A stretch of DNA of 64,000 nucleotides from Escherichia coli (GTDB taxonomy: Bacteria; Pseudomonadota; Gammaproteobacteria; Enterobacterales; Enterobacteriaceae): the NCBI RefSeq assembly GCF_024223415.1, contig NZ_CP100500.1. One strand, 5' to 3'. The notes below the pieces were generated by a model, which saw nothing but the letters and a program-made list of their open reading frames with translations, ran no database searches and was not told where the DNA came from. Each line of letters opens with the position of its first letter. Position 1 is the stretch's first letter. Below, in pieces: positions 5,493-62,679 of the stretch. Both the position numbers and the translations under genes were made by a program.

Positions 5493-5580
5493 GGTGAGGT
5501 GTCCGAGTGGCTGAAGGAGCACGCCTGGAAAGTGTGTATACGGCAACGTATCGGGGGTTCGAATCCCCCCCTCACCGCCA
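5493..5580 (+). tRNA. serW: tRNA-Ser (anticodon GGA), long variable arm
   Basis: GGTGAGG...CCTCACC acceptor stem, anticodon loop CCTGGAAAG, GGTTCGAATCC T-arm, encoded CCA end; 88 nt; lies after infA as in the conserved core order. Confidence 0.95.
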
Positions 5581-43395: not shown

Positions 43396-44391
43396 TCAGT
43401 GGCTGATTTTTTTCAGCTGTTCTTCACTCAGCCCCGTAATTTTCATGATTGTCTGGAAACCCATCCCTTCAGCCAGCATATTACGCGCGGTTTCCAGTTT
43501 GCCTTCCAGTTGTCCTTCGAGTCGACCTTCGGCACGGCCTTCCATTCTGCCTTCCATTCTGCCTTCCAGCTTACCACGCTCCATACCCTGCGCCATGCCC
43601 AGCGCAATGCCTTCCTCGCGTCCGCTCTGCTTCAGTTGTTCAGCCAGTGTCATTATGTTGCCCTCGTGCTGTGGCAGCCGCTCCGCCAGCGTCTGCAAAA
43701 ACCTTACCGTCACATGTTCACTGCCGTTCAGCAGATAGTGGAACAGAACCTGCGCCAGCTCTTCATTCAGCGAAGTCTGTATCAGCTGAACCAGCCTGTC
43801 CATCTGCAGCATGATGTCGCGGCTGCGGCTGTGTTTCATCAGCAGCGTCAGTGCCCCCATACGACGGTGCTGCATTATTTCATCGTCATCCAGTACCGTC
43901 ACGTCCACCAGGTGGAACGGTCTGGTGTAGATTTTAGCAGCAAGTTCCGGATTTCTGAAACACTCCAGCCAGTTCATGCTGTACGGGTACGGACTCCGCT
44001 CACCGTGGTAGAATAACAGCGGGATCACCAGCGGCAGCTCATGGTGCTGTTCAAAGTGACGCTGCATCGCCGCCACCGCATATCTGAGCATCCTGAACGC
44101 CATAAACGCGTTTTCCGTGCTCTGGTGTTCCGCGAGGCAATAAATATACCCCTCCTCACCGCTGACGGTCTTCATGCTGAACAGCGCATCGCACGCATAC
44201 TGTTTCAGATCCTGGTCCACAAAGGTACAGGGCTCCAGCCGCAGCGTTGACAGATCACACAGCTGCCGGTATTCCGCCGGAAGATGCAGTTCAACAAAAT
44301 CACGGGCCACCTCTGCGGAGGCCATAAACGCCCTGAAGGCAGCATCATGCGGCGTGGGGGTATTTTTCTCTTTCCTGCTGCTCACCGTCAT
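43396..44391 (-). CDS. Rpn-family recombination-promoting nuclease / putative transposase (YhgA-like)
   Basis: 331 aa; PD-(D/E)xK-like N-terminal region; C-terminal tandem GRMEG/GRAEG/GRLEG/GQLEG repeats. Confidence 0.75.
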   Translation of the reverse strand: MTVSSRKEKNTPTPHDAAFRAFMASAEVARDFVELHLPAEYRQLCDLSTLRLEPCTFVDQDLKQYACDALFSMKTVSGEEGYIYCLAEHQSTENAFMAFRMLRYAVAAMQRHFEQHHELPLVIPLLFYHGERSPYPYSMNWLECFRNPELAAKIYTRPFHLVDVTVLDDDEIMQHRRMGALTLLMKHSRSRDIMLQMDRLVQLIQTSLNEELAQVLFHYLLNGSEHVTVRFLQTLAERLPQHEGNIMTLAEQLKQSGREEGIALGMAQGMERGKLEGRMEGRMEGRAEGRLEGQLEGKLETARNMLAEGMGFQTIMKITGLSEEQLKKISH

Positions 44392-44506: not shown

Positions 44507-45061
44507 TTAGCGGATGATGCCGGCCATCACAGGCCAGGATAACGAAAGGCACGCGTTTCTGAATGCCCTGAGTGGCTCAGCGCCTTCAGGTGTGGCTGCA
44601 CGCACCACCCTGTAACAGCATACCACCGTACACTGCCCTTCTGGTGTGAGTGTGGTGCCGGCCTGTTGCAGTAACGCCACCAGGAGCGAATCAGCTGTTA
44701 GGCCGGATCCCGGTGGGCAAATGAGATCCTGGCTGATCAGCAACAGACAACGTATCCCGGTGCTGTCTGTCGTTTCCCGCAGCCAGCGTAACACCACCGG
44801 CAGTAACGGATATCCGGCATGGCTTCGCTGATTCAGCTGTCTGTAAAATGCCCGGTAAAACGCATGAATCTGCCCCCCGTCACGATTTCCTCCTGTTGAA
44901 TGAAGTGTGAACTGAACGGCCAGCAGACGCGGCCAGTGATCCACCGCCTGCTGAATAAAACGCCGGATTTCCACCGGCTCTGAAAGTACGGTTTCGGTTA
45001 TCTGCACGATTTGCTCTCTTTGAATGTTTCTGAACCGGTGTCGGTGCACAGGGAAACGCAT
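44507..45061 (-). CDS. YagK/YfjJ-family (inovirus Gp2-like) protein, divergent copy lacking the His-hydrophobic-His motif
   Basis: HWPRLLAVQFTLHSTG resembles the family N-terminal motif, but the HxH position reads IRCLLLISQD. Confidence 0.45.
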   Translation of the reverse strand: MRFPVHRHRFRNIQREQIVQITETVLSEPVEIRRFIQQAVDHWPRLLAVQFTLHSTGGNRDGGQIHAFYRAFYRQLNQRSHAGYPLLPVVLRWLRETTDSTGIRCLLLISQDLICPPGSGLTADSLLVALLQQAGTTLTPEGQCTVVCCYRVVRAATPEGAEPLRAFRNACLSLSWPVMAGIIR

Positions 45062-45125
45062 ACCCACACCACCACGCATACCCGGTCACAGCGTCACCGC
45101 CGTAAACTGCGACCGGGAACGCGCA

Positions 45126-45548
45126 TTACAGCAACGAATTGTCCGTCCCGGTATCTTCCATCAGGGGCTCCCGGCGTTCCCTGCTGTACAGCCCGCTTCC
45201 ACACCCCGGGCAGACCTTTTCTCCTTCATAGCTTTCATCACACATCACACAAAACCACCTTCTTACCTTCACCGCATAATCAGGCACCAGCATGCCCTGC
45301 AGATACACACGACGGGATTCTTTCTCTGCCGGGTCAAGCCAGGTACATCGCAGGAGAACTTTCTCAGAGACCGTCATCTGGTCATGTTCAAACCACGGTG
45401 GTTGTCCGTCCGTGCCCCGCTTAAGCGTTAACGGGCAACCACAGGACACACAGCACAAAACGTCCTGGCGGTTGTGCTCCGCAGCTTCTTTCGCGGTGAC
45501 AAAATGGCCCTTGCTGTCATTCGCCATATAGCAGTTCAGAATTCGCAT
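45126..45548 (-). CDS. zinc-ribbon protein, paralogue B
   Basis: CCVSCGCPLTLKRGTDGQPPWFEH and C-terminal CVMCDESYEGEKVCPGCG; start placed at MRILNCY. Confidence 0.5.
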   Translation of the reverse strand: MRILNCYMANDSKGHFVTAKEAAEHNRQDVLCCVSCGCPLTLKRGTDGQPPWFEHDQMTVSEKVLLRCTWLDPAEKESRRVYLQGMLVPDYAVKVRRWFCVMCDESYEGEKVCPGCGSGLYSRERREPLMEDTGTDNSLL

Positions 45549-45562
45549 ATCCCCCCCTGAGC

Positions 45563-45949
45563 TTAAGCTGTCCGGGAAATACTGAAGCGCCCGGTCCGGC
45601 AGTGTGTGCAGTACTGCTCCCCATAATAATCGTGGTGACATTGTCTGCAGTGCCGGCTGGCTTTACGCACCACGGGTAAGGCATCCGGTACAAACTGCCG
45701 TAAGCGTTTAATCAGTTGCACCTCCCTGCGCTCAGGCTGTACGTAAGGACACTGCTGACCGTGCTCCGTCAGCCCTTCGTCAGTGTGTTCAAACCAGGGG
45801 CGTTCAGTGTTGTATTGCGGGTGGTATCTGAGCGCACTGCCGCAAAGGTGGCAGGTGTAGCGGTCGTAAGGTGCAGTCTGTGCGGTACGGGCACCGGTCA
45901 GACGTCCGTTGCCATCAAACGCGAGAAAAGATTTTGCGTACATCGTCAT
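45563..45949 (-). CDS. zinc-ribbon protein, paralogue A
   Basis: CHLCGSALRYHPQYNTERPWFEH and C-terminal CRQCHHDYYGEQYCTHC. Confidence 0.5.
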   Translation of the reverse strand: MTMYAKSFLAFDGNGRLTGARTAQTAPYDRYTCHLCGSALRYHPQYNTERPWFEHTDEGLTEHGQQCPYVQPERREVQLIKRLRQFVPDALPVVRKASRHCRQCHHDYYGEQYCTHCRTGRFSISRTA

Positions 45950-46154
45950 ACTCCGGGGCCGCCAGACGACACGCAGGCGTCAGCCGTCCCTTTACGGGCA
46001 GCGTGGACAGAGTGTGAATGGCGGTACAGTTAAGGGTGGAAAATGGGTGGGCTGTTGTTACAGCACTGTGGGTGTCACATCATGGTGTACCAACGTAAAA
46101 AATAATCAGCAGGATGTCGCCGGACATCAGCCCGTCCTGCTGGTTTTGCCGGGC

Positions 46155-46724
46155 TCAGCCCCGACTGCAGCCGAAATTACGTTCACCGGTGCCACAGGCT
46201 TTGGTATGCTCCTTCGCCAGATAGTCAGCCCGTTCCAGTAGCTGCTGAAAGCCGGCGTCATCATCACGCGTCAGCCACAGTGCGGGATGTTCCGGAAAGG
46301 TCGCCAGCGTGGCATGGTATCCGGCATCCACACCCAGGGCACTGCACCACGCCTGTTTAATCATCCCGGCCAGTGACCCCGGAACGCGGTAATCGCCGGC
46401 ACGGCACCAGGTATCCCGGTTGACCAGCAACAGCAGGTGATAATGTTTTTTACCTTTACGCTCCCCGAACTCCCGGGCCCAGGCGTAATGCAGGGTTGTG
46501 GGATGTACGCGTTTACCTTCACGGCGCCTGCGTTTCTGGTAAGCGTAAATTCGGGCTTTCAGGGCATTGACGAAGCGGGATATCACCGCAGCATCGGTCT
46601 CTGCGGGGTGCTCCGGCAGACGCAGATCCACCTGGAGCGCTGTCAGGCGGGGATGCACCGCCAGTGCCTGCTGCACCGTCTCACGGATACGCTTCTGCCA
46701 GAAGCTGTTGTACTTGTGTATCAT
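46155..46724 (-). CDS. YagK/YfjJ-family (inovirus Gp2-like, putative HUH-type) protein
   Basis: Motifs HPRLTALQVDLRLPEH and KKHYHLLLLVNRD. Confidence 0.65.
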   Translation of the reverse strand: MIHKYNSFWQKRIRETVQQALAVHPRLTALQVDLRLPEHPAETDAAVISRFVNALKARIYAYQKRRRREGKRVHPTTLHYAWAREFGERKGKKHYHLLLLVNRDTWCRAGDYRVPGSLAGMIKQAWCSALGVDAGYHATLATFPEHPALWLTRDDDAGFQQLLERADYLAKEHTKACGTGERNFGCSRG

Positions 46725-47167
46725 GGTTGAATCTCCTCCGTGACTCACAGACGTTACTTAAGGAAGAAGATGAGCAACAGGCTACACGTACGATAAAAGA
46801 CATTTGGGTCATGAATACACGATCTGGATGGACGACATAAAGGTGATGATCTGCTCAAACCAACCAGCGTTTATGATCGATGCGACAGACAGAAGGAATG
46901 AACTACTACAATAAATAAAATCTGTCGCTGTGTGGCAAGGAAGATTTTCTTCAGGAGTGCTGGCTTATTGGGATTTTTAACACAATTTAGAGTGAGTTCA
47001 ATCAGCCACAAATCTGGATTCCTATGTCCGGATTTTTACCACAATCCCCTTATTGATTTTTATTAATCATTCACAATCTGTGATCTAGCTCGATTGCGAT
47101 TTGTATTTGACTTAATATAATCACCATGATTGTATTAAATCAAATTATAACAACAGGCGTAAAAACC

Positions 47168-48121
47168 ATGAACATTAAAAAATCAATAGAACGAGTACCC
47201 GGCGGTATGATGGTTGTACCACTGGTGATTGGCGCCATTATCAATACCTTTTCACCACAAGTGCTGGAGATCGGCGGGTTCACCACCGCGTTGTTCAAAA
47301 ACGGCGCTGCTCCTCTGATTGGTGCCTTCCTGCTCTGTATGGGAGCAGGGATCAGCGTGAAAGCCGCACCTCGGGCGTTGTTTCAGGGGGGGGCAATAAC
47401 CCTGACCAAACTGCTTGTCGCCATTGCGATTGGCCTAGGTGTTGAGCATCTGTTCGGTCAGGAAGGTATCTTCGGATTGAGCGGCGTGGCAATCATTGCG
47501 GCAATGAGTAACTCAAACGGCGGACTTTACGCGGCGCTAGTGGGAGAGTTTGGCAACGAACGCGATGTCGGCGCTATTTCAATTCTATCTCTGAATGATG
47601 GACCGTTCTTTACAATGATCGCGCTGGGAGCTGCTGGTATGGCGAACATACCAATCATAGCGCTGGTCGCAGTGCTGATTCCGCTGGTGATAGGGATGCT
47701 CCTCGGTAACCTTGATCCCAACATGCGTGACTTCCTGACCAAAGGTGGACCACTATTGATCCCGTTCTTCGCGTTTGCGCTGGGTGCGGGGATCAACCTT
47801 GAAATGCTTCTGCAGGGTGGGCTGGCTGGGATTCTGCTTGGCGTACTGACCACCTTTATCGGCGGTTTCTTTAACATTCGCGCCGACCGTCTGGCTGGGG
47901 GAACCGGTATTGCCGGCGCGGCGGCTTCCAGCACAGCCGGAAATGCGGTAGCGACGCCGCTGGCGATTGCTCAGGCAGACCCTTCGCTGGCTGAAGTGGT
48001 TACCTCTGCCGCACCGCTGATTGCCGCATCGGTGATCACAACCGCAATTCTGACGCCAGTCCTAACCTCTCGGGTCGCCAAAAATCGGGCGCGTCAGATC
48101 TCTGAGGAGAAAAAAGTATGA
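47168..48121 (+). CDS. 2-keto-3-deoxygluconate permease (KdgT family)
   Basis: MNIKKSIERVPGGMMVVPLVIGAIINTF...; polytopic membrane protein. Confidence 0.8.
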   Translation: MNIKKSIERVPGGMMVVPLVIGAIINTFSPQVLEIGGFTTALFKNGAAPLIGAFLLCMGAGISVKAAPRALFQGGAITLTKLLVAIAIGLGVEHLFGQEGIFGLSGVAIIAAMSNSNGGLYAALVGEFGNERDVGAISILSLNDGPFFTMIALGAAGMANIPIIALVAVLIPLVIGMLLGNLDPNMRDFLTKGGPLLIPFFAFALGAGINLEMLLQGGLAGILLGVLTTFIGGFFNIRADRLAGGTGIAGAAASSTAGNAVATPLAIAQADPSLAEVVTSAAPLIAASVITTAILTPVLTSRVAKNRARQISEEKKV

Positions 48122-49389
48122 AGATGATCGTTATCGCCGACGACTTTACGGGTTCTAACGATACTGGCGTGCAGTTGGCGAAGAAAGGAGCTCGCACGGA
48201 AGTTTTGCTAACGCCGGAGCAAAAGCCTTCGCGTCGCACGGATGTACTGGTGCTCAACACTGAAAGTCGTGCGGTGCCGGCCGCACAGGCAGCGAAAGCG
48301 GTAACGCATGCTCTGGCTCCCTGGTGCAAAGGAGAGATGCTCCCGCTGGTATACAAGAAAATCGACTCCACATTTCGCGGCAACGTCGGCGCGGAAGTGA
48401 CGGCAGCGATGCGAGCCGCTAAACGGACTCTGGCAGTGATCGCTGCGGCGATCCCAGCTGCAGGACGCACAACCCGTAACGGATTATGCCTGGTCAACGG
48501 TACGCCTCTACTGGAAACCGAGTTTGCCAGCGATCCGAAAACGCCGGTTTTCTCCTCGCGCATTGCGGAACTGATCGCGCTACAAAGCGATATCCCGGTA
48601 CATGACGTGTCGCTTGATGACGTGCGACGCGGACAGCTCAGCGCCCTTCTTAAAGCTTTTGCAGCCCAGGGGGAATGCATGGTGGTAGTCGATGCGGTGG
48701 AAGATCACGACCTGTCTCTGATTACCCAGGCTATTTGTGAACAGGCTACATTTCCTCTACTGGTCGGTGCGGCAGGACTGGCGAATGCGCTACCGGTCAG
48801 AATGTTCATGCAGGAGAAGAAGGCTCTGCCAGTGCTAGTAGTTGCAGGATCGATGAGCGAAGCCACCCGGCGGCAGGTTGAAAAAGCGCTCACCCAGGCA
48901 CACGCCAACGTGGTGGACATTGATGTCTCACGACTGATTTCCTCGAAGGCCGAACAGGAAATAGCCTCTGTGGTGGAACAGGCCAGCGTGTTGCTCAGTC
49001 ACCAGAAACACACGATTCTTCGCACCAGCCGTAGTGCGGATGACCGACTGATGATCGATGCTCTGTGTACTGAAGCAGGCGTAGGCCGCCAACAGCTTGG
49101 CGAGATGCTCAGCCAATGTCTAGGGATCATTACACTGCGCATTATCGAACAGGCGCGTATTGGCGGCCTGTTCCTGACCGGAGGAGATATTGCCACTGCT
49201 GTTGCCAGTGCGCTTGGTGCTGAAGGCTATCGCATCCAGAACGAGGTCGCCCCATGCATTCCCTGCGGGATGTTTGTGAACAGCGAAATCGACGATCTTC
49301 CGGTGATCACGAAAGCTGGCGGATTCGGTTCAGACAGCACCCTTTGTGATGCACTTTATTTTATTGAGGAGATGTACAGTGGTAACTAA
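48118..49389 (+). CDS. four-carbon acid sugar kinase family protein (YgbK/OtnK-like)
   Basis: MKMIVIADDFTGSNDTGVQLAKKGARTEVLL N-terminus. Confidence 0.8.
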   Translation: MKMIVIADDFTGSNDTGVQLAKKGARTEVLLTPEQKPSRRTDVLVLNTESRAVPAAQAAKAVTHALAPWCKGEMLPLVYKKIDSTFRGNVGAEVTAAMRAAKRTLAVIAAAIPAAGRTTRNGLCLVNGTPLLETEFASDPKTPVFSSRIAELIALQSDIPVHDVSLDDVRRGQLSALLKAFAAQGECMVVVDAVEDHDLSLITQAICEQATFPLLVGAAGLANALPVRMFMQEKKALPVLVVAGSMSEATRRQVEKALTQAHANVVDIDVSRLISSKAEQEIASVVEQASVLLSHQKHTILRTSRSADDRLMIDALCTEAGVGRQQLGEMLSQCLGIITLRIIEQARIGGLFLTGGDIATAVASALGAEGYRIQNEVAPCIPCGMFVNSEIDDLPVITKAGGFGSDSTLCDALYFIEEMYSGN

Positions 49390-50362
49390 AACAATAGCGA
49401 TTACGATGGGCGATCCGGCAGGTATCGGTCCAGAAATAATTGTCAAGGCACTTTGTGAAAATGAACTTAGCGGCGCACCGCTGGTAGTGGTGGGATGCCT
49501 ACAGACCCTACAACGTTTGCAAACCAAAGGACTGGCAGAAGGAGTGACTTTTCGCGCAATTGACAATGTCACGCAGGCGCGATTTTCACAGGGCGTGATT
49601 CACGTAATCGATGAGCCGCTGGCACAGCCCCAAGCGCTGGAGCCAGGTAAAGTGCAGGCCGAGGCGGGAGATCTGGCCTACCGTTGCGTAAAACGTGCGA
49701 CGGAGTTGGCACTGAAAGGTGATGTACACGCCATCGCCACTGCGCCGCTGAATAAAGAAGCACTACATCAGGCGGGACATTATTATCCGGGACATACCGA
49801 ACTGCTGGCGACGTTGACCGGAAGCCGTGACTATGCGATGGTGCTTTACACCGACAAGCTGAAGGTGATTCACGTTTCGACCCATATTGCGTTACGCAAG
49901 TTTCTCGACACTCTCAACAGGCAACGCGTGGAGACTGTTATAGGCATCGCGGATCACTTCCTTAAGCGTATTGGCTTAGCCCAACCGCGCATCGCCGTAG
50001 CCGGGATCAATCCCCATGCAGGCGAAAACGGTCTGTTTGGCGATGAAGAAATTCGCATTGTATCGCCAGCCATTGAAAACATGAGGGCGAAAGGAACAGA
50101 CGTTTTCGGACCATGTCCACCGGATACCGTGTTTTTGCAGGCATACGAGGGTCATTATGACATGGTGGTGGCGATGTACCACGATCAGGGACATATTCCG
50201 CTCAAACTGCTTGGATTCTATGATGGCGTGAATATCACCGCCGGTCTGCCGTTTATTCGTACCTCTGCTGATCACGGGACTGCGTTTGATATTGCCTGGA
50301 CGGGCAAAGCAAAATCTGAGAGCATGGTCATATCGATTAAACTGGCAATGCAACTGGCATAA
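49379..50362 (+). CDS. PdxA-family NAD-dependent dehydrogenase (4-hydroxythreonine-4-phosphate dehydrogenase-like)
   Basis: KTIAITMGDPAGIGPEI...HTELLA...DHGTAFDIAWTGKA; GTG start with GAGGAG Shine-Dalgarno assumed. Confidence 0.8.
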   Translation: MVTKTIAITMGDPAGIGPEIIVKALCENELSGAPLVVVGCLQTLQRLQTKGLAEGVTFRAIDNVTQARFSQGVIHVIDEPLAQPQALEPGKVQAEAGDLAYRCVKRATELALKGDVHAIATAPLNKEALHQAGHYYPGHTELLATLTGSRDYAMVLYTDKLKVIHVSTHIALRKFLDTLNRQRVETVIGIADHFLKRIGLAQPRIAVAGINPHAGENGLFGDEEIRIVSPAIENMRAKGTDVFGPCPPDTVFLQAYEGHYDMVVAMYHDQGHIPLKLLGFYDGVNITAGLPFIRTSADHGTAFDIAWTGKAKSESMVISIKLAMQLA

Positions 50363-50371
50363 TTTCCTGTT

Positions 50372-51142
50372 ATGAAAGGACAACACCGTCTGGATAAAAT
50401 AGTGGCGTATTTGAAAAATCATACGCTGGCGACCGTGGAACAACTTGTAGATGTGGTAGAAGCATCGCCCGCGACGATCCGACGTGATCTGATCAAACTG
50501 AATAAACAGGGTGTGATCAGCCGCAGCCACGGAGGTGTTGCCCTGCGGCGTTTTGAACCCGCGCAACCCACAACCAATGAAAAGCAATTACGATCGCCTG
50601 CGGAAAAGCGGGCGATCGCGCGTTTTGCAGCCTCAATAGTACAGGCCGGCGACGCAGTGGTTTTGGACGCCGGCACCACCATGCTGGAGTTGGCTAAATG
50701 CCTGACTCATTTGCCACTCAGGGTGATCACGGTCGATCTGCATATCGCCCTGTTTTTGTCCGAATTTCCCCAGATTGAAGTCACCATTGTGGGTGGTCGT
50801 ATTGATGAAAGCAGTCAGTCCTGTATCGGCGACTTTGGTCGCAAAATGTTACGTAGCGTCTACCCTGATATCGCATTCATGAGCTGTAACACCTGGAGTA
50901 TGGAAAAAGGTGTCACAACTCCGACGGAGGACAAAGCAGGACTCAAGCAGGAGATTATCGCTAACGCCCAACGTAAGGTTCTACTGGCCGACAGCAGCAA
51001 ATATGGCGCGCATTCGCTGTTCAACGTAACGCCGCTGAGCAGTTTTACCGATGTTGTGACCGATGTGCATCTGCCACGCCCTGTCCAGGCAGAGCTGGAA
51101 GCCCACTCCATTGCCCTTACGCTAGTCCAGCCTGGATTTTAA
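50372..51142 (+). CDS. DeoR-family transcriptional regulator
   Basis: N-terminal helix-turn-helix ([34 protein letters not shown]) plus sugar-phosphate-binding domain. Confidence 0.85.
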
Positions 51143-59603: not shown

Positions 59604-61955
59604 TCAGAATAACCCCCCTTCACCATCAGCCACAATCCTGTATCCCATCGCCTTATAACCCCGCTGGCGTTTATCCCACATTCTGAGCAGCACAGGATAC
59701 GCTTTATCCACAAAATCAATGATCCTGACATCGCTTTTACCGGTATACTGTCTGTGCAGACGCCCTGCATACTGCTGTAACGTCCCTTTCCATGACACCG
59801 GCATCGCCAGAATCAGCGTATCCAGCGGTGGGTGGTCAAATCCCTCACCAATAAGTTTACCGGTTGACAACAGAATGCGGGGAGAATCCTGAGGAAGCGC
59901 ATTTAACTCAGAAATCAGCATTGTACGCTTTTTTTTCGATAACCGGCCATGAAGCACAAAGGGTGACAGGTTCAGTGAATGCATTACTGATGCTATATCA
60001 TCCAGATGCTCTTTTCGTTCAGTCAGTACCAGAACTTTACGTCCCTGCGCGAATGCCTTCATGGCTTCTTCAGCTATCGCCACAGTCCTGTCATGATCAA
60101 GCGCAATTTCTCTGAAAATATCCTGGATCCCCGCATCCGATGGTAAATGTCCGGATGTAAAACGGAAACGGAGCTGCACTTCCAGATTATGCGGACTTTC
60201 CTTCGGGCTGGCCGCTGTGTGACGAAGGGCACCACAGTACATAAAAATGATGGGATGCAGACCATCCCGTCGGACAGGCGTTGCCGTCAGTCCCAAAAGA
60301 TATCTGGCATTCGTTTCCTTCAGAACAGCAGAAAATGAAAACGCTCCAGCATGATGGCACTCATCAACTATGACTTGCCCGTAATTCCTGACCACAGGTG
60401 CAACTTTGCCATGCCTGAACAGAGACTGCACAACAGCAATATCAATATTGCCAGAGGGGTTATGTTTGCCCCCTCCGATAATACCAATACCGTCACTGGT
60501 CTGCAGAAATACCCCAAGCCGCTCCTGCCATTGCTTTAATAACTCAGTCCGGTGTACCAGTACAAGTGTATTAACTCTCCGTCGTGCAATCACAGCCGCG
60601 GCGGTAACCGTCTTACCAAAAGCCGTTGGCGCACAAAGTACACCAGAATCATAACGGAGCAATACCGAAACAGCCTCTTCCTGATCCGCTCTGAGGTTTC
60701 CCGTGAACACAGCATGACATTCTGTACCTGCAAATCGTTCATCGATGATTTCTGCAGCAATATTGTTGTCACTGAGGAAGGATAATGCGCTGTCCAGACA
60801 TCCACGGGGTAACGCAATGTGTTGCGGATAATTTTCCGCACAACCTGTAACCCGGGGTTTATTCCAGACAGACATTCTCATGGCCTGAGCCTTATAAAAC
60901 ACAGGATTAGGAAACGCAGCCAGTCGAATAAGCCGGTTGGCCAGCGGCTGAGGTAATTGCGCTTTTTCGAAATAGATCTGGTTTGCCAGCGTGATTCTCA
61001 GCGGCTCAGCAACAGAAACCGTCAGTTTGTTTTCTGATGATGTTTTCCACGGCGTGCTCAGGTCTTCGTCGGTAAAGTTCACATCCAGTGGATGAATACT
61101 TCCTGTAGCCCGTAATATTGTCGGTTCTATATCCTGCACATTCATCGGGATCACCGATGCCAGGAATGCCCACTGATCAGGATAAGGCTGAAAATTCATA
61201 TCAACAAAAACACTGCCTCCCGATTCACGCGGTCTTTTTTGCAGAGGTAACGCGATGAGATTGCCGAATCCCCCTTTTGGCATGGTATCCTGATTAGGAA
61301 ATAATCGGTCATAAGAACTCAACCGCAGTTGCCGGGAACGGCTACACGTATGGCTGATAACGGCTGTCCCCAGTCGGCGTGCATCACGGGCCGAAACCCG
61401 GGAAGCAAAAAATATCCAGACATGCGCCCCCTGACGTGAGCGGGATATTTCCAGCGCTGCGGGTATCCCCAGCTCATCACAGGATCGCATGAATGCGGAT
61501 GCATCCTTCTGCCATTCAGCATCATCAAAATCAACAGCCAGAAAATAACAGGAATCGTCTTCCAGCAGCGGATATACCCCGACTGTATGGTAGCCTGCGA
61601 GATGACGGTAAATGACAGGATCGGATACAGGTAGCAACTGACGGTGTGCGCAGTCACCGCATTTTATCCCGGGCTTACCGCAGATTCCCGGCTTCCATTC
61701 GTTAGCACAGGCCGGCGAATACCCTGATTTACCACTGACCTGACTTTCCCAGCGAAGGGCCCATACATCATCACGCCCACGAAACAACCGACGAAATAAT
61801 GAAACCTTCTGTTCAGCAGATAATGCGGAAACATGATGTACAGAACGCTGCGGTTTACGTCGCCATTCAATCCCGTGAGCTTCAAGTAATGAGGCCAGAC
61901 GGGCATTTTCTGCCCTCAGTGCAGCTAATTCGTCGTTATCAGATTGACACACCAT
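59604..61955 (-). CDS. fusion protein: N-terminal archaeo-eukaryotic primase (primase-polymerase)-like domain plus C-terminal SF2 DExH helicase
   Basis: N-terminal coiled coil, Cys cluster CGKPGIKCGDCAH, AEP-like motifs FLAVDFDD and GAHVWIFF; helicase motifs APTAFGKT, VIVDECHH, GLTATP, QYAGRLHRQ. Confidence 0.8.
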   Translation of the reverse strand: MVCQSDNDELAALRAENARLASLLEAHGIEWRRKPQRSVHHVSALSAEQKVSLFRRLFRGRDDVWALRWESQVSGKSGYSPACANEWKPGICGKPGIKCGDCAHRQLLPVSDPVIYRHLAGYHTVGVYPLLEDDSCYFLAVDFDDAEWQKDASAFMRSCDELGIPAALEISRSRQGAHVWIFFASRVSARDARRLGTAVISHTCSRSRQLRLSSYDRLFPNQDTMPKGGFGNLIALPLQKRPRESGGSVFVDMNFQPYPDQWAFLASVIPMNVQDIEPTILRATGSIHPLDVNFTDEDLSTPWKTSSENKLTVSVAEPLRITLANQIYFEKAQLPQPLANRLIRLAAFPNPVFYKAQAMRMSVWNKPRVTGCAENYPQHIALPRGCLDSALSFLSDNNIAAEIIDERFAGTECHAVFTGNLRADQEEAVSVLLRYDSGVLCAPTAFGKTVTAAAVIARRRVNTLVLVHRTELLKQWQERLGVFLQTSDGIGIIGGGKHNPSGNIDIAVVQSLFRHGKVAPVVRNYGQVIVDECHHAGAFSFSAVLKETNARYLLGLTATPVRRDGLHPIIFMYCGALRHTAASPKESPHNLEVQLRFRFTSGHLPSDAGIQDIFREIALDHDRTVAIAEEAMKAFAQGRKVLVLTERKEHLDDIASVMHSLNLSPFVLHGRLSKKKRTMLISELNALPQDSPRILLSTGKLIGEGFDHPPLDTLILAMPVSWKGTLQQYAGRLHRQYTGKSDVRIIDFVDKAYPVLLRMWDKRQRGYKAMGYRIVADGEGGLF

Positions 61956-62115: not shown

Positions 62116-62679
62116 TCAGTTGTGTCGCGGTCGGCCGCGGTTACTTTTTTCAGGTAGTCTGCTACGCATCAGAATAATACCGTGTTCTTTCTGATCCTGT
62201 TTAGCCAGGTAGCTAAGGGCGTAACGTAAGTCATCTACCGCAGATTTATTACTATAGCGAATTACGTGATCAATACGCACCGGGTATTTATCTTTAGCCC
62301 GGCACAGGTGAAAATAACCATCCCCTTCCGTGATCCGCCTCCAGATATCTCCCAGCAGCCTGGATATCCGGTAAGATTTCTTGTGCCGTTGTCCATCCAG
62401 ATAGCCGATAAAATGAATATGAAGTCCCTTGTTTTGTGTATATTCCATAACCCAGTAATATCCTGCCAGAATCGTTTGGGTTTCGCTAAGTAAGCGCTGC
62501 ATCTCAATACACATACTGTGCTTACAGGAATGACCGAAACTGGGCGTGTCTTTCCTGTAGGCAAAATCAATTCTGAAAGGTAACAGTTTAGAAAAACGTT
62601 GAAACATACCTTCCATGTGTTTATTCACGTCTTTCAGAATCGTGAAATTCATTTCGTAATTGGGATTGGCATTGTACAT
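62116..62679 (-). CDS. YagK/YfjJ-family (inovirus Gp2-like, putative HUH-type) protein
   Basis: 187 aa with LLPFRIDFAYRKD and GLHIHFIGYLDG motifs. Confidence 0.65.
   Translation of the reverse strand: MYNANPNYEMNFTILKDVNKHMEGMFQRFSKLLPFRIDFAYRKDTPSFGHSCKHSMCIEMQRLLSETQTILAGYYWVMEYTQNKGLHIHFIGYLDGQRHKKSYRISRLLGDIWRRITEGDGYFHLCRAKDKYPVRIDHVIRYSNKSAVDDLRYALSYLAKQDQKEHGIILMRSRLPEKSNRGRPRHN

Follow-up and report, generated by a model that had tools for sequence, protein, structure and literature searches.

The HUH and YxxK motifs together form the signature of the single-tyrosine Rep nucleases of the HUH superfamily, and the fold can outlive its chemistry: the origin-binding domain of SV40 large T antigen and the DNA-binding domain of papillomavirus E1 are HUH-fold domains that have lost catalysis and kept DNA and origin binding. 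The YagK/YfjJ family (Pfam PF11726), to which yagK of CP4-6 and yfjJ of CP4-57 in Escherichia coli K-12 belong, is the described family closest to the genes considered here. At the level of gene neighbourhood the tmRNA-inserted Pseudomonas islands I23, I44 and I55, which are transduced by jumbo phages, have a core in which alpA adjoins an 'inovirus Gp2-like' gene and which also includes RadC (10.1101/2024.08.29.610337). We analysed a cluster of four genes in a 64,000-nucleotide stretch of E. coli DNA (assembly GCF_024223415.1, contig NZ_CP100500.1; this whole stretch is referred to as the window). The cluster encodes a full-length YagK/YfjJ protein carrying HUH and YxxK motifs (Y1), two paralogous zinc-ribbon proteins and a protein of the UCP030791 family (Y2), which is predicted to be a catalytically dead Rep paralogue. 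The four-gene order is an ancestral module that is conserved across enterobacterial genera and normally accompanied by an AlpA gene. An earlier note, made from the letters alone, had proposed four same-strand reading frames here, and all four are present on the minus strand:

46155..46724, minus strand: Y1, Rep-type HUH protein of the YagK/YfjJ ('inovirus Gp2') family, 189 amino acids, assigned by Pfam and motifs
45563..45943 and 45126..45548, minus strand: the two zinc-protein genes, between Y1 and Y2
44507..45007, minus strand: Y2, UCP030791 (PF27752) protein of 166 amino acids from a GTG start, a Rep/YagK paralogue

Y1 matches PF11726 (YagK_YfjJ_C) with an E-value of 1.5e-44 over model positions 3-170 of 170, and PF23343 (REP_ORF2-G2P) with an E-value of 1.9e-5. 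Its start is the ATG at 46724, preceded at 8 nt by the ribosome-binding site GGAGGAG; the GTG at 46748 is rejected as a start. The ATG yields the 189 residues common to all orthologues, which are known here from E. coli, Enterobacter, Klebsiella, Salmonella, Serratia, Cedecea, Rouxiella, Pectobacterium and Edwardsiella. H94-Y95-H96, the HYH motif that had been pointed out earlier, and Y168-L-A-K171 are invariant among 17 orthologues from at least eight genera, and Y1 thereby combines the HUH motif and the YxxK tyrosine motif by which HUH Rep-type nucleases are recognised. The ratio of nonsynonymous to synonymous substitution rates (dN/dS) against orthologues is 0.12-0.22. Judged by these motifs, Y1 is probably an active, DNA-nicking Rep-type protein of the HUH/Tyr class. 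It shares with the YagK/YfjJ family its location on an island, its length of about 190 residues and, in related islands, the proximity of YfjI- or AlpA-type genes, but it falls into a 189-residue subgroup whose genes precede AlpA and/or the zinc-ribbon pair. Compared with the HUH Rep initiators and nickases (filamentous-phage gpII, REP_ORF2-G2P; SIRV1 ORF119 Rep, PDB 2x3g), Y1 has no fused helicase or other domain, and its sequence similarity to those of solved structure is undetectable; PDB sequence searches with the Y1-family profile gave no significant match. Literature searches returned nothing functional on YagK/YfjJ.

Despite the 'inovirus' label in databases, the Y1-family genes found here are not inovirus genes. 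Presence in filamentous phages was not borne out, with one match among 50,697 phage records, itself unannotated, and in PHROGs both Y1 and Y3, a distant paralogue described below, match a family of unknown function only. Among the 'phage' records, only OR844780.1, Escherichia phage ECO111 5-P, of 4468 bp, encodes a homologue of Y1 (83.6% identity); very short and unannotated, this record may represent a piece of an island instead of a phage.

The two genes that follow Y1 encode paralogues (28% identity, E 2e-13), as had been proposed from their shared motif layout: each protein carries a CxxC...PWFEH element at its N-terminus and a CxxC...CxxC ribbon at its C-terminus. Both consist of a DUF7828 domain (PF25165, E 5e-31 and 5e-30) followed by Zn_ribbon_11 (PF11682, E 1e-6 and 4e-15), with no enzymatic domain. 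Across at least nine genera, C33, C36, W52-F53-E54-H55, C68, C100, C103 and C116 are invariant in both paralogues and C113 is nearly so; these invariant Cys/His sets therefore indicate one predicted CCHC-type and one predicted C4-type zinc site per protein. The pair is an ancient ordered duplication that is apparently undescribed; we found no literature on DUF7828 or PF11682, and PDB sequence searches with the zinc-ribbon profiles had no significant match.

Y2 probably starts at the GTG at 45007, the M of MQITE, which is seen in 75 of 99 homologues, and an AAGAGA motif conserved in five genera precedes this start. Its similarity to Y1 is already visible by BLASTP (30% identity over 114 residues, E 3e-6), which aligns I-R-C on H-Y-H. 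A first hhalign comparison, which used a low-diversity Y2 alignment, gave 41%; distant members from the representative search were needed, and with these included the UCP030791 family aligns to the Y1 family at a probability of 99.0% (E 4.6e-18, 135 columns). Three of 23 UCP030791 members match PF11726 alone at E<=0.001, the best at 6e-10, and distant members carry PF11726 and PF27752 together. With an AlphaFold2 model of Y2 as query (pLDDT 65), all Foldseek matches in AFDB50, the clustered AlphaFold database (AFDB), are inovirus Gp2 or YagK/YfjJ proteins, ranging from orthologues of Y2 to proteins of Vibrio and Shewanella that share 13-20% identity with it and match at probability 1.00. Resting on family profiles and a predicted structure, the homology of Y2 to YagK/YfjJ proteins is secure; names in UniProt already reflect it, and the earlier description of Y2 as a divergent relative whose HxH had been replaced is supported.

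The case for placing Y2 in UCP030791 (PF27752), made through its homologues, is indirect but strong. Y2 has no direct match in the Pfam copy that was searched, which does not include PF27752, but all 99 of its homologues, some of them 88-95% identical to it, carry a precomputed PF27752 match, UCP030791 being the name used by other tools. In RefSeq one orthologue bears the name "UCP030791 family putative phage-derived protein", a label that no phage match backs. The homologues amount to about 99 clusters at 90% identity, nearly all from E. coli, and a profile search run exhaustively over 1.84 billion representatives returned just 71 relatives, some of them 21-31% identical.

Unlike Y1, Y2 has neither of the nuclease motifs, carrying IRC for HYH and no tyrosine at the YLAK position, and the loss extends over its family. 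The HUH position reads [IM]-R-C in 78 of the 81 E. coli-type UCP030791 members with a readable motif; in distant members it reads CRM, CKM, IQM, IPI, YRH and similar, never HxH, and none of the members examined has a tyrosine at the YLAK position. Since the motif loss is family-wide and dN/dS of Y2 against its orthologues is 0.24-0.35, Y2 is best described as a conserved Rep paralogue, predicted to be catalytically dead, rather than as a degenerate copy. The earlier note, which took it as apparently degenerate, was thus right about the loss of HxH and wrong in seeing a one-off decay. UCP030791 as a whole is a branch of the Rep/YagK proteins that is inactivated throughout and kept by selection, and it is apparently undescribed as such; literature searches yielded nothing on the family. 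By analogy with the SV40 large T and papillomavirus E1 domains, Y2 would be a Rep-nuclease fold without HUH and tyrosine that is retained, presumably for sequence-specific DNA binding; the viral domains, however, are parts of helicase initiators, whereas Y2 is a bacterial protein on its own, its gene lying next to that of an apparently active paralogue.

Conservation of the four-gene order was assessed in 34 fetched loci annotated with hidden Markov models built for this analysis. In all nine loci with enough flanking sequence the zinc-ribbon genes lie beside Rep-like and AlpA genes, and in one locus (L021) the module is rearranged yet complete. The co-occurrence of the zinc pair with YagK-type genes across islands, suggested previously as a check, holds for their Rep-like neighbours, though not for the window's third family member, Y3, which does not lie beside the pair. 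All four genes are under purifying selection, with dN/dS of 0.10-0.35 against orthologues, values that also exclude mis-chosen reading frames as the source of the apparent paralogy and motif loss. What follows the module varies by lineage and comprises type I restriction-modification genes, K88-like fimbriae, Dnd, LuxI/R, Gabija-like genes and insertion sequence (IS) elements. Because the following sequence differs in every lineage, the module is backbone at the edge of a cargo region. The islands that host this backbone operon are tRNA-inserted and enterobacterial, and also carry YfjI, a YeeP-type GTPase, Ag43, DUF932, antirestriction genes, RadC and CbtA/CbeA. The nearest published parallel is that of the Pseudomonas islands (10.1101/2024.08.29.610337), with their alpA, Gp2-like and RadC core and variable, defence-rich cargo; these belong to another genus, use another insertion site, and neither the zinc-ribbon pair nor UCP030791 was reported for them. 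The four- or five-gene module conserved across genera is apparently undescribed.

The copy in the window is a modified one. AlpA has no match anywhere in the 64 kb, and similarity to other copies of the module ends at 46736, just upstream of the Y1 start codon; beyond this point lies kdgT-like/D-threonate cargo, and downstream of Y2 come a gene for an Rpn nuclease and IS21. Because the upstream region has been replaced by cargo, AlpA is lacking and Rpn and IS21 follow Y2, expression of this copy is uncertain; for the same reasons (native upstream region of Y1 replaced, AlpA missing, IS21 and Rpn flanking) the module is probably not autonomous here.

We place about half of our confidence in a reading of the cluster as an AlpA-less copy of an island backbone operon that serves the replication or mobilisation of the excised island, a function we infer from the proteins encoded and the company they keep. 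In an intact module AlpA, the usual excision activator, would bring about excision of the island, after which Y1 would nick a specific site in the island DNA and so start rolling-circle replication or single-strand mobilisation and transfer. The zinc pair and the dead Rep would bind DNA as accessory, regulatory, specificity or restraining factors, a role for which the large T and E1 origin-binding domains would be the precedent as far as the dead paralogue is concerned. Three points weigh against a replication or mobilisation operon. Searches within the module and beside it turned up no nick site, no iteron and no conserved non-coding element; literature searches found no biochemical or genetic data for the four families; and the module decays frequently (zinc-ribbon genes frameshifted in 4 of 12 loci, the fourth gene a remnant in common E. 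coli islands), which makes it dispensable to the host.

The same decay can be taken further, to an explanation in which the genes are relics whose adjacency reflects descent from one ancestral backbone, with no present joint function and with Y2 turning into a pseudogene. In the version of the module that is common in E. coli, the fourth gene persists only as frameshifted fragments in three frames and a 3' remnant of about 160 nt that ends at the same stop codon:

8380-8940 of L001 (the common E. coli island, NZ_CP027219.1): decayed UCP030791 gene, in an unannotated gap of about 760 bp after the second zinc-ribbon gene

Fragments such as IRGFIQQA, DRHCTVECCYRLGR and HEPFTALKATLQSFTFPVVA occur in separate frames, and over its final ~160 nt the gene aligns to Y2 as far as the stop codon that both share. 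Frameshifts or truncations likewise affect many Y2 homologues in databases, the zinc-ribbon genes are broken in L025, L029, L031 and L032, and the window itself contributes a replaced upstream region of Y1 and an absent AlpA. Relics would, however, not be expected to keep dN/dS at 0.10-0.35 in all four genes, Y2 included, nor to hold their order between genera whose UCP030791 proteins are just 21-35% identical. Both zinc-ribbon paralogues have moreover been kept, in fixed order and with their Cys/His sets invariant, and the loss of HUH and tyrosine is uniform across the family and not sporadic. We consider mere descent improbable.

A purely regulatory module is in our view no more probable than a set of relics. 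In such a module the zinc proteins and the dead Rep, possibly joined by Y1, would act with AlpA to control excision, the integrase or cargo expression, and not replication. It would account for the constant adjacency to AlpA, which is known to activate the CP4-57 integrase, and for the position at the border between conserved backbone and variable cargo; the accessory proteins are all small and without enzymatic domains, and one Y2 homologue in AFDB carries the source name 'transcriptional regulator'. A pure regulator would leave the invariant HUH and YxxK set of Y1 hard to explain, and for the accessory proteins this account overlaps with the replication or mobilisation reading, from which it differs mainly over Y1. 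Least likely of all, and in our judgement rather doubtful, is an anti-phage or anti-plasmid defence or counter-defence system in which Y1 would attack single-stranded DNA or rolling-circle invaders and the zinc proteins and dead Rep would serve as sensors or decoys. In its favour, the islands are defence-rich, the module often borders Gabija-like OLD+UvrD, Dnd or type I restriction-modification genes, Y3 adjoins a TOTE conflict-system protein, and it is conceivable that a dead Rep serves as a decoy for replicons that depend on Rep. Against it, the module is conserved where the defence genes beside it vary, it moves together with AlpA as part of the backbone, and it is often inactivated without replacement. 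PADLOC-DB v2 defence models gave no significant match for the four module proteins, and NCBIfam nothing meaningful for the five proteins searched.

The significance of the module lies in an apparently active Rep being consistently encoded with an excision regulator, a conserved zinc pair and a conserved dead copy of the Rep itself, by which a set of "hypothetical protein" annotations becomes a directly testable one. Existing annotation is corrected in two respects: the genes are not those of an inovirus, and a phage derivation of UCP030791 finds no support among phage matches. A possible site for cis-acting sequence is seen outside the window:

~3850-5000 of L015, L017 and L019 (Enterobacter, Rouxiella and Edwardsiella): about 1.1 kb without called genes, from the Y1 orthologue to a divergent 320-residue gene

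We regard this gap as a candidate origin or regulatory region; its counterpart is missing from the window.

The third Rep-like gene of the window lies at a distance from the module, next to a primase-helicase gene; a further Rep-like candidate was found in other islands:

62116..62679, minus strand: Y3, distant Rep/YagK-type HUH protein of 187 amino acids, with HIH and YLAK
59604-61955, minus strand: 783-residue protein with an N-terminal PrimPol and a C-terminal helicase domain (PADLOC PrimPol, E 9e-134)
L003 10141-10716, L005 2069-2641 and L011 4878-5453: protein of 190-191 amino acids with no Pfam match, between a Y3-type Rep gene and AlpA

Direct Pfam matches of Y3 are weak (PF11726, E 0.026, below threshold; PF23343 (REP_ORF2-G2P), E 6e-4). 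Aligned as families by hhalign, Y3 and Y1 match from end to end (92.7%, E 4.4e-7, 164 columns), HIH and YLAK of Y3 falling opposite the corresponding Y1 motifs, in agreement with the earlier view of the gene at 62116 as a third member of the family. In RefSeq its E. coli homologues are YagK/YfjJ domain-containing or Gp2 proteins beside YfjI and TOTE. Y3 is a distant member of the YagK/YfjJ superfamily, predicted to be active. It belongs to a separate module (YfjI, Y3 and the TOTE primase-helicase) and stands immediately upstream of the primase-helicase gene, which is directly downstream of Y3 and the YfjI-family gene; E. coli homologues of the 783-residue protein are named 'TOTE conflict system archaeo-eukaryotic primase domain-containing protein' in RefSeq. 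Neither this separate module nor the cross-genus ancestral module with its usual AlpA gene had been noticed in the earlier note.

The 190-191-residue protein is found in the usual E. coli context of UCP030791. Aligned by hhalign to the Y1 family it reaches 67% (E 5e-5), with an alignment of very low diversity, and it shows E-Y-H for H-Y-H; from this it looks like a further YagK-like paralogue, and islands of the L003, L005 and L011 type may carry three Rep-like paralogues in a row. In most E. coli, UCP030791 members follow this trio of a Y3-type Rep, the 190-191-residue protein and AlpA, whereas Y2 of the window comes after the zinc-ribbon pair, an order also seen in other genera. Y2 shares 88-95% identity with database members. 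Pfam already includes all four families of the module, RefSeq and UniProt have names for them, and the trio is annotated in thousands of genomes.

The remaining features concern the island in which the module resides and the sequence around it:

5493-5580: tRNA-Ser(GGA)
17751-17947, minus strand: IS102 RNA (Rfam RF00124, 88 bits), adjoining the island's GTPase gene region
47126-51142, plus strand: cargo block of a kdgT-like transporter, a D-threonate kinase (E 1e-196), a D-threonate 4-phosphate dehydrogenase (E 2e-199) and a DeoR-type regulator
46104..46145, minus strand: inverted repeat I17, with 11-nt arms of 91% complementarity and a 20-nt loop
46971-46986 and 47030-47045, minus-strand reading: 16-nt direct repeat ATTGTG[T/G]TAAAAATCC, copies 59 nt apart, between Y1 and the kdgT-like gene

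The cydDC-aat-infA-tRNA-Ser(GGA) segment at 500-5600 matches many complete E. coli genomes at 99.9-100% identity, and by sequence the window is identified as E. coli chromosome. To the right of the tRNA gene the whole remainder is a large mosaic genomic island with Ag43, a GTPase gene, IS66, a metabolic block for D-threonate and alcohol/aldehyde compounds, IS21 and Rpn genes, and at its right end the YfjI / Rep-like / TOTE primase-helicase segment. After the D-threonate genes come adhP, an ExaC-type aldehyde dehydrogenase, a sigma-54 activator and an alanine/sodium symporter. An Rfam scan of the whole window matched the tRNA and the IS102 RNA only, with none in the four-gene cluster. The Rpn gene directly downstream of Y2 (43396-44391, minus strand) encodes a recombination-promoting nuclease of the Rpn family whose C-terminal region is a run of EG[RQK][LM] repeats (MERGKLEGRMEGRMEGRAEGRLEGQLEGKLE), and the Rpn/UCP030791 neighbourhood recurs in two further E. 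coli genomes.

I17 is a terminator-like site downstream of Y1, followed by ATTATTTTTT. Because such sites are no more numerous in the region than in shuffled sequence, the hairpin is only suggestive of a terminator. The 16-nt repeat has two matches in the window against 0.12 expected. As an iteron of the module it was rejected, being missing from 34 of 34 related loci and lying in sequence that other copies of the module lack; it may instead be an operator of the divergent D-threonate cluster.

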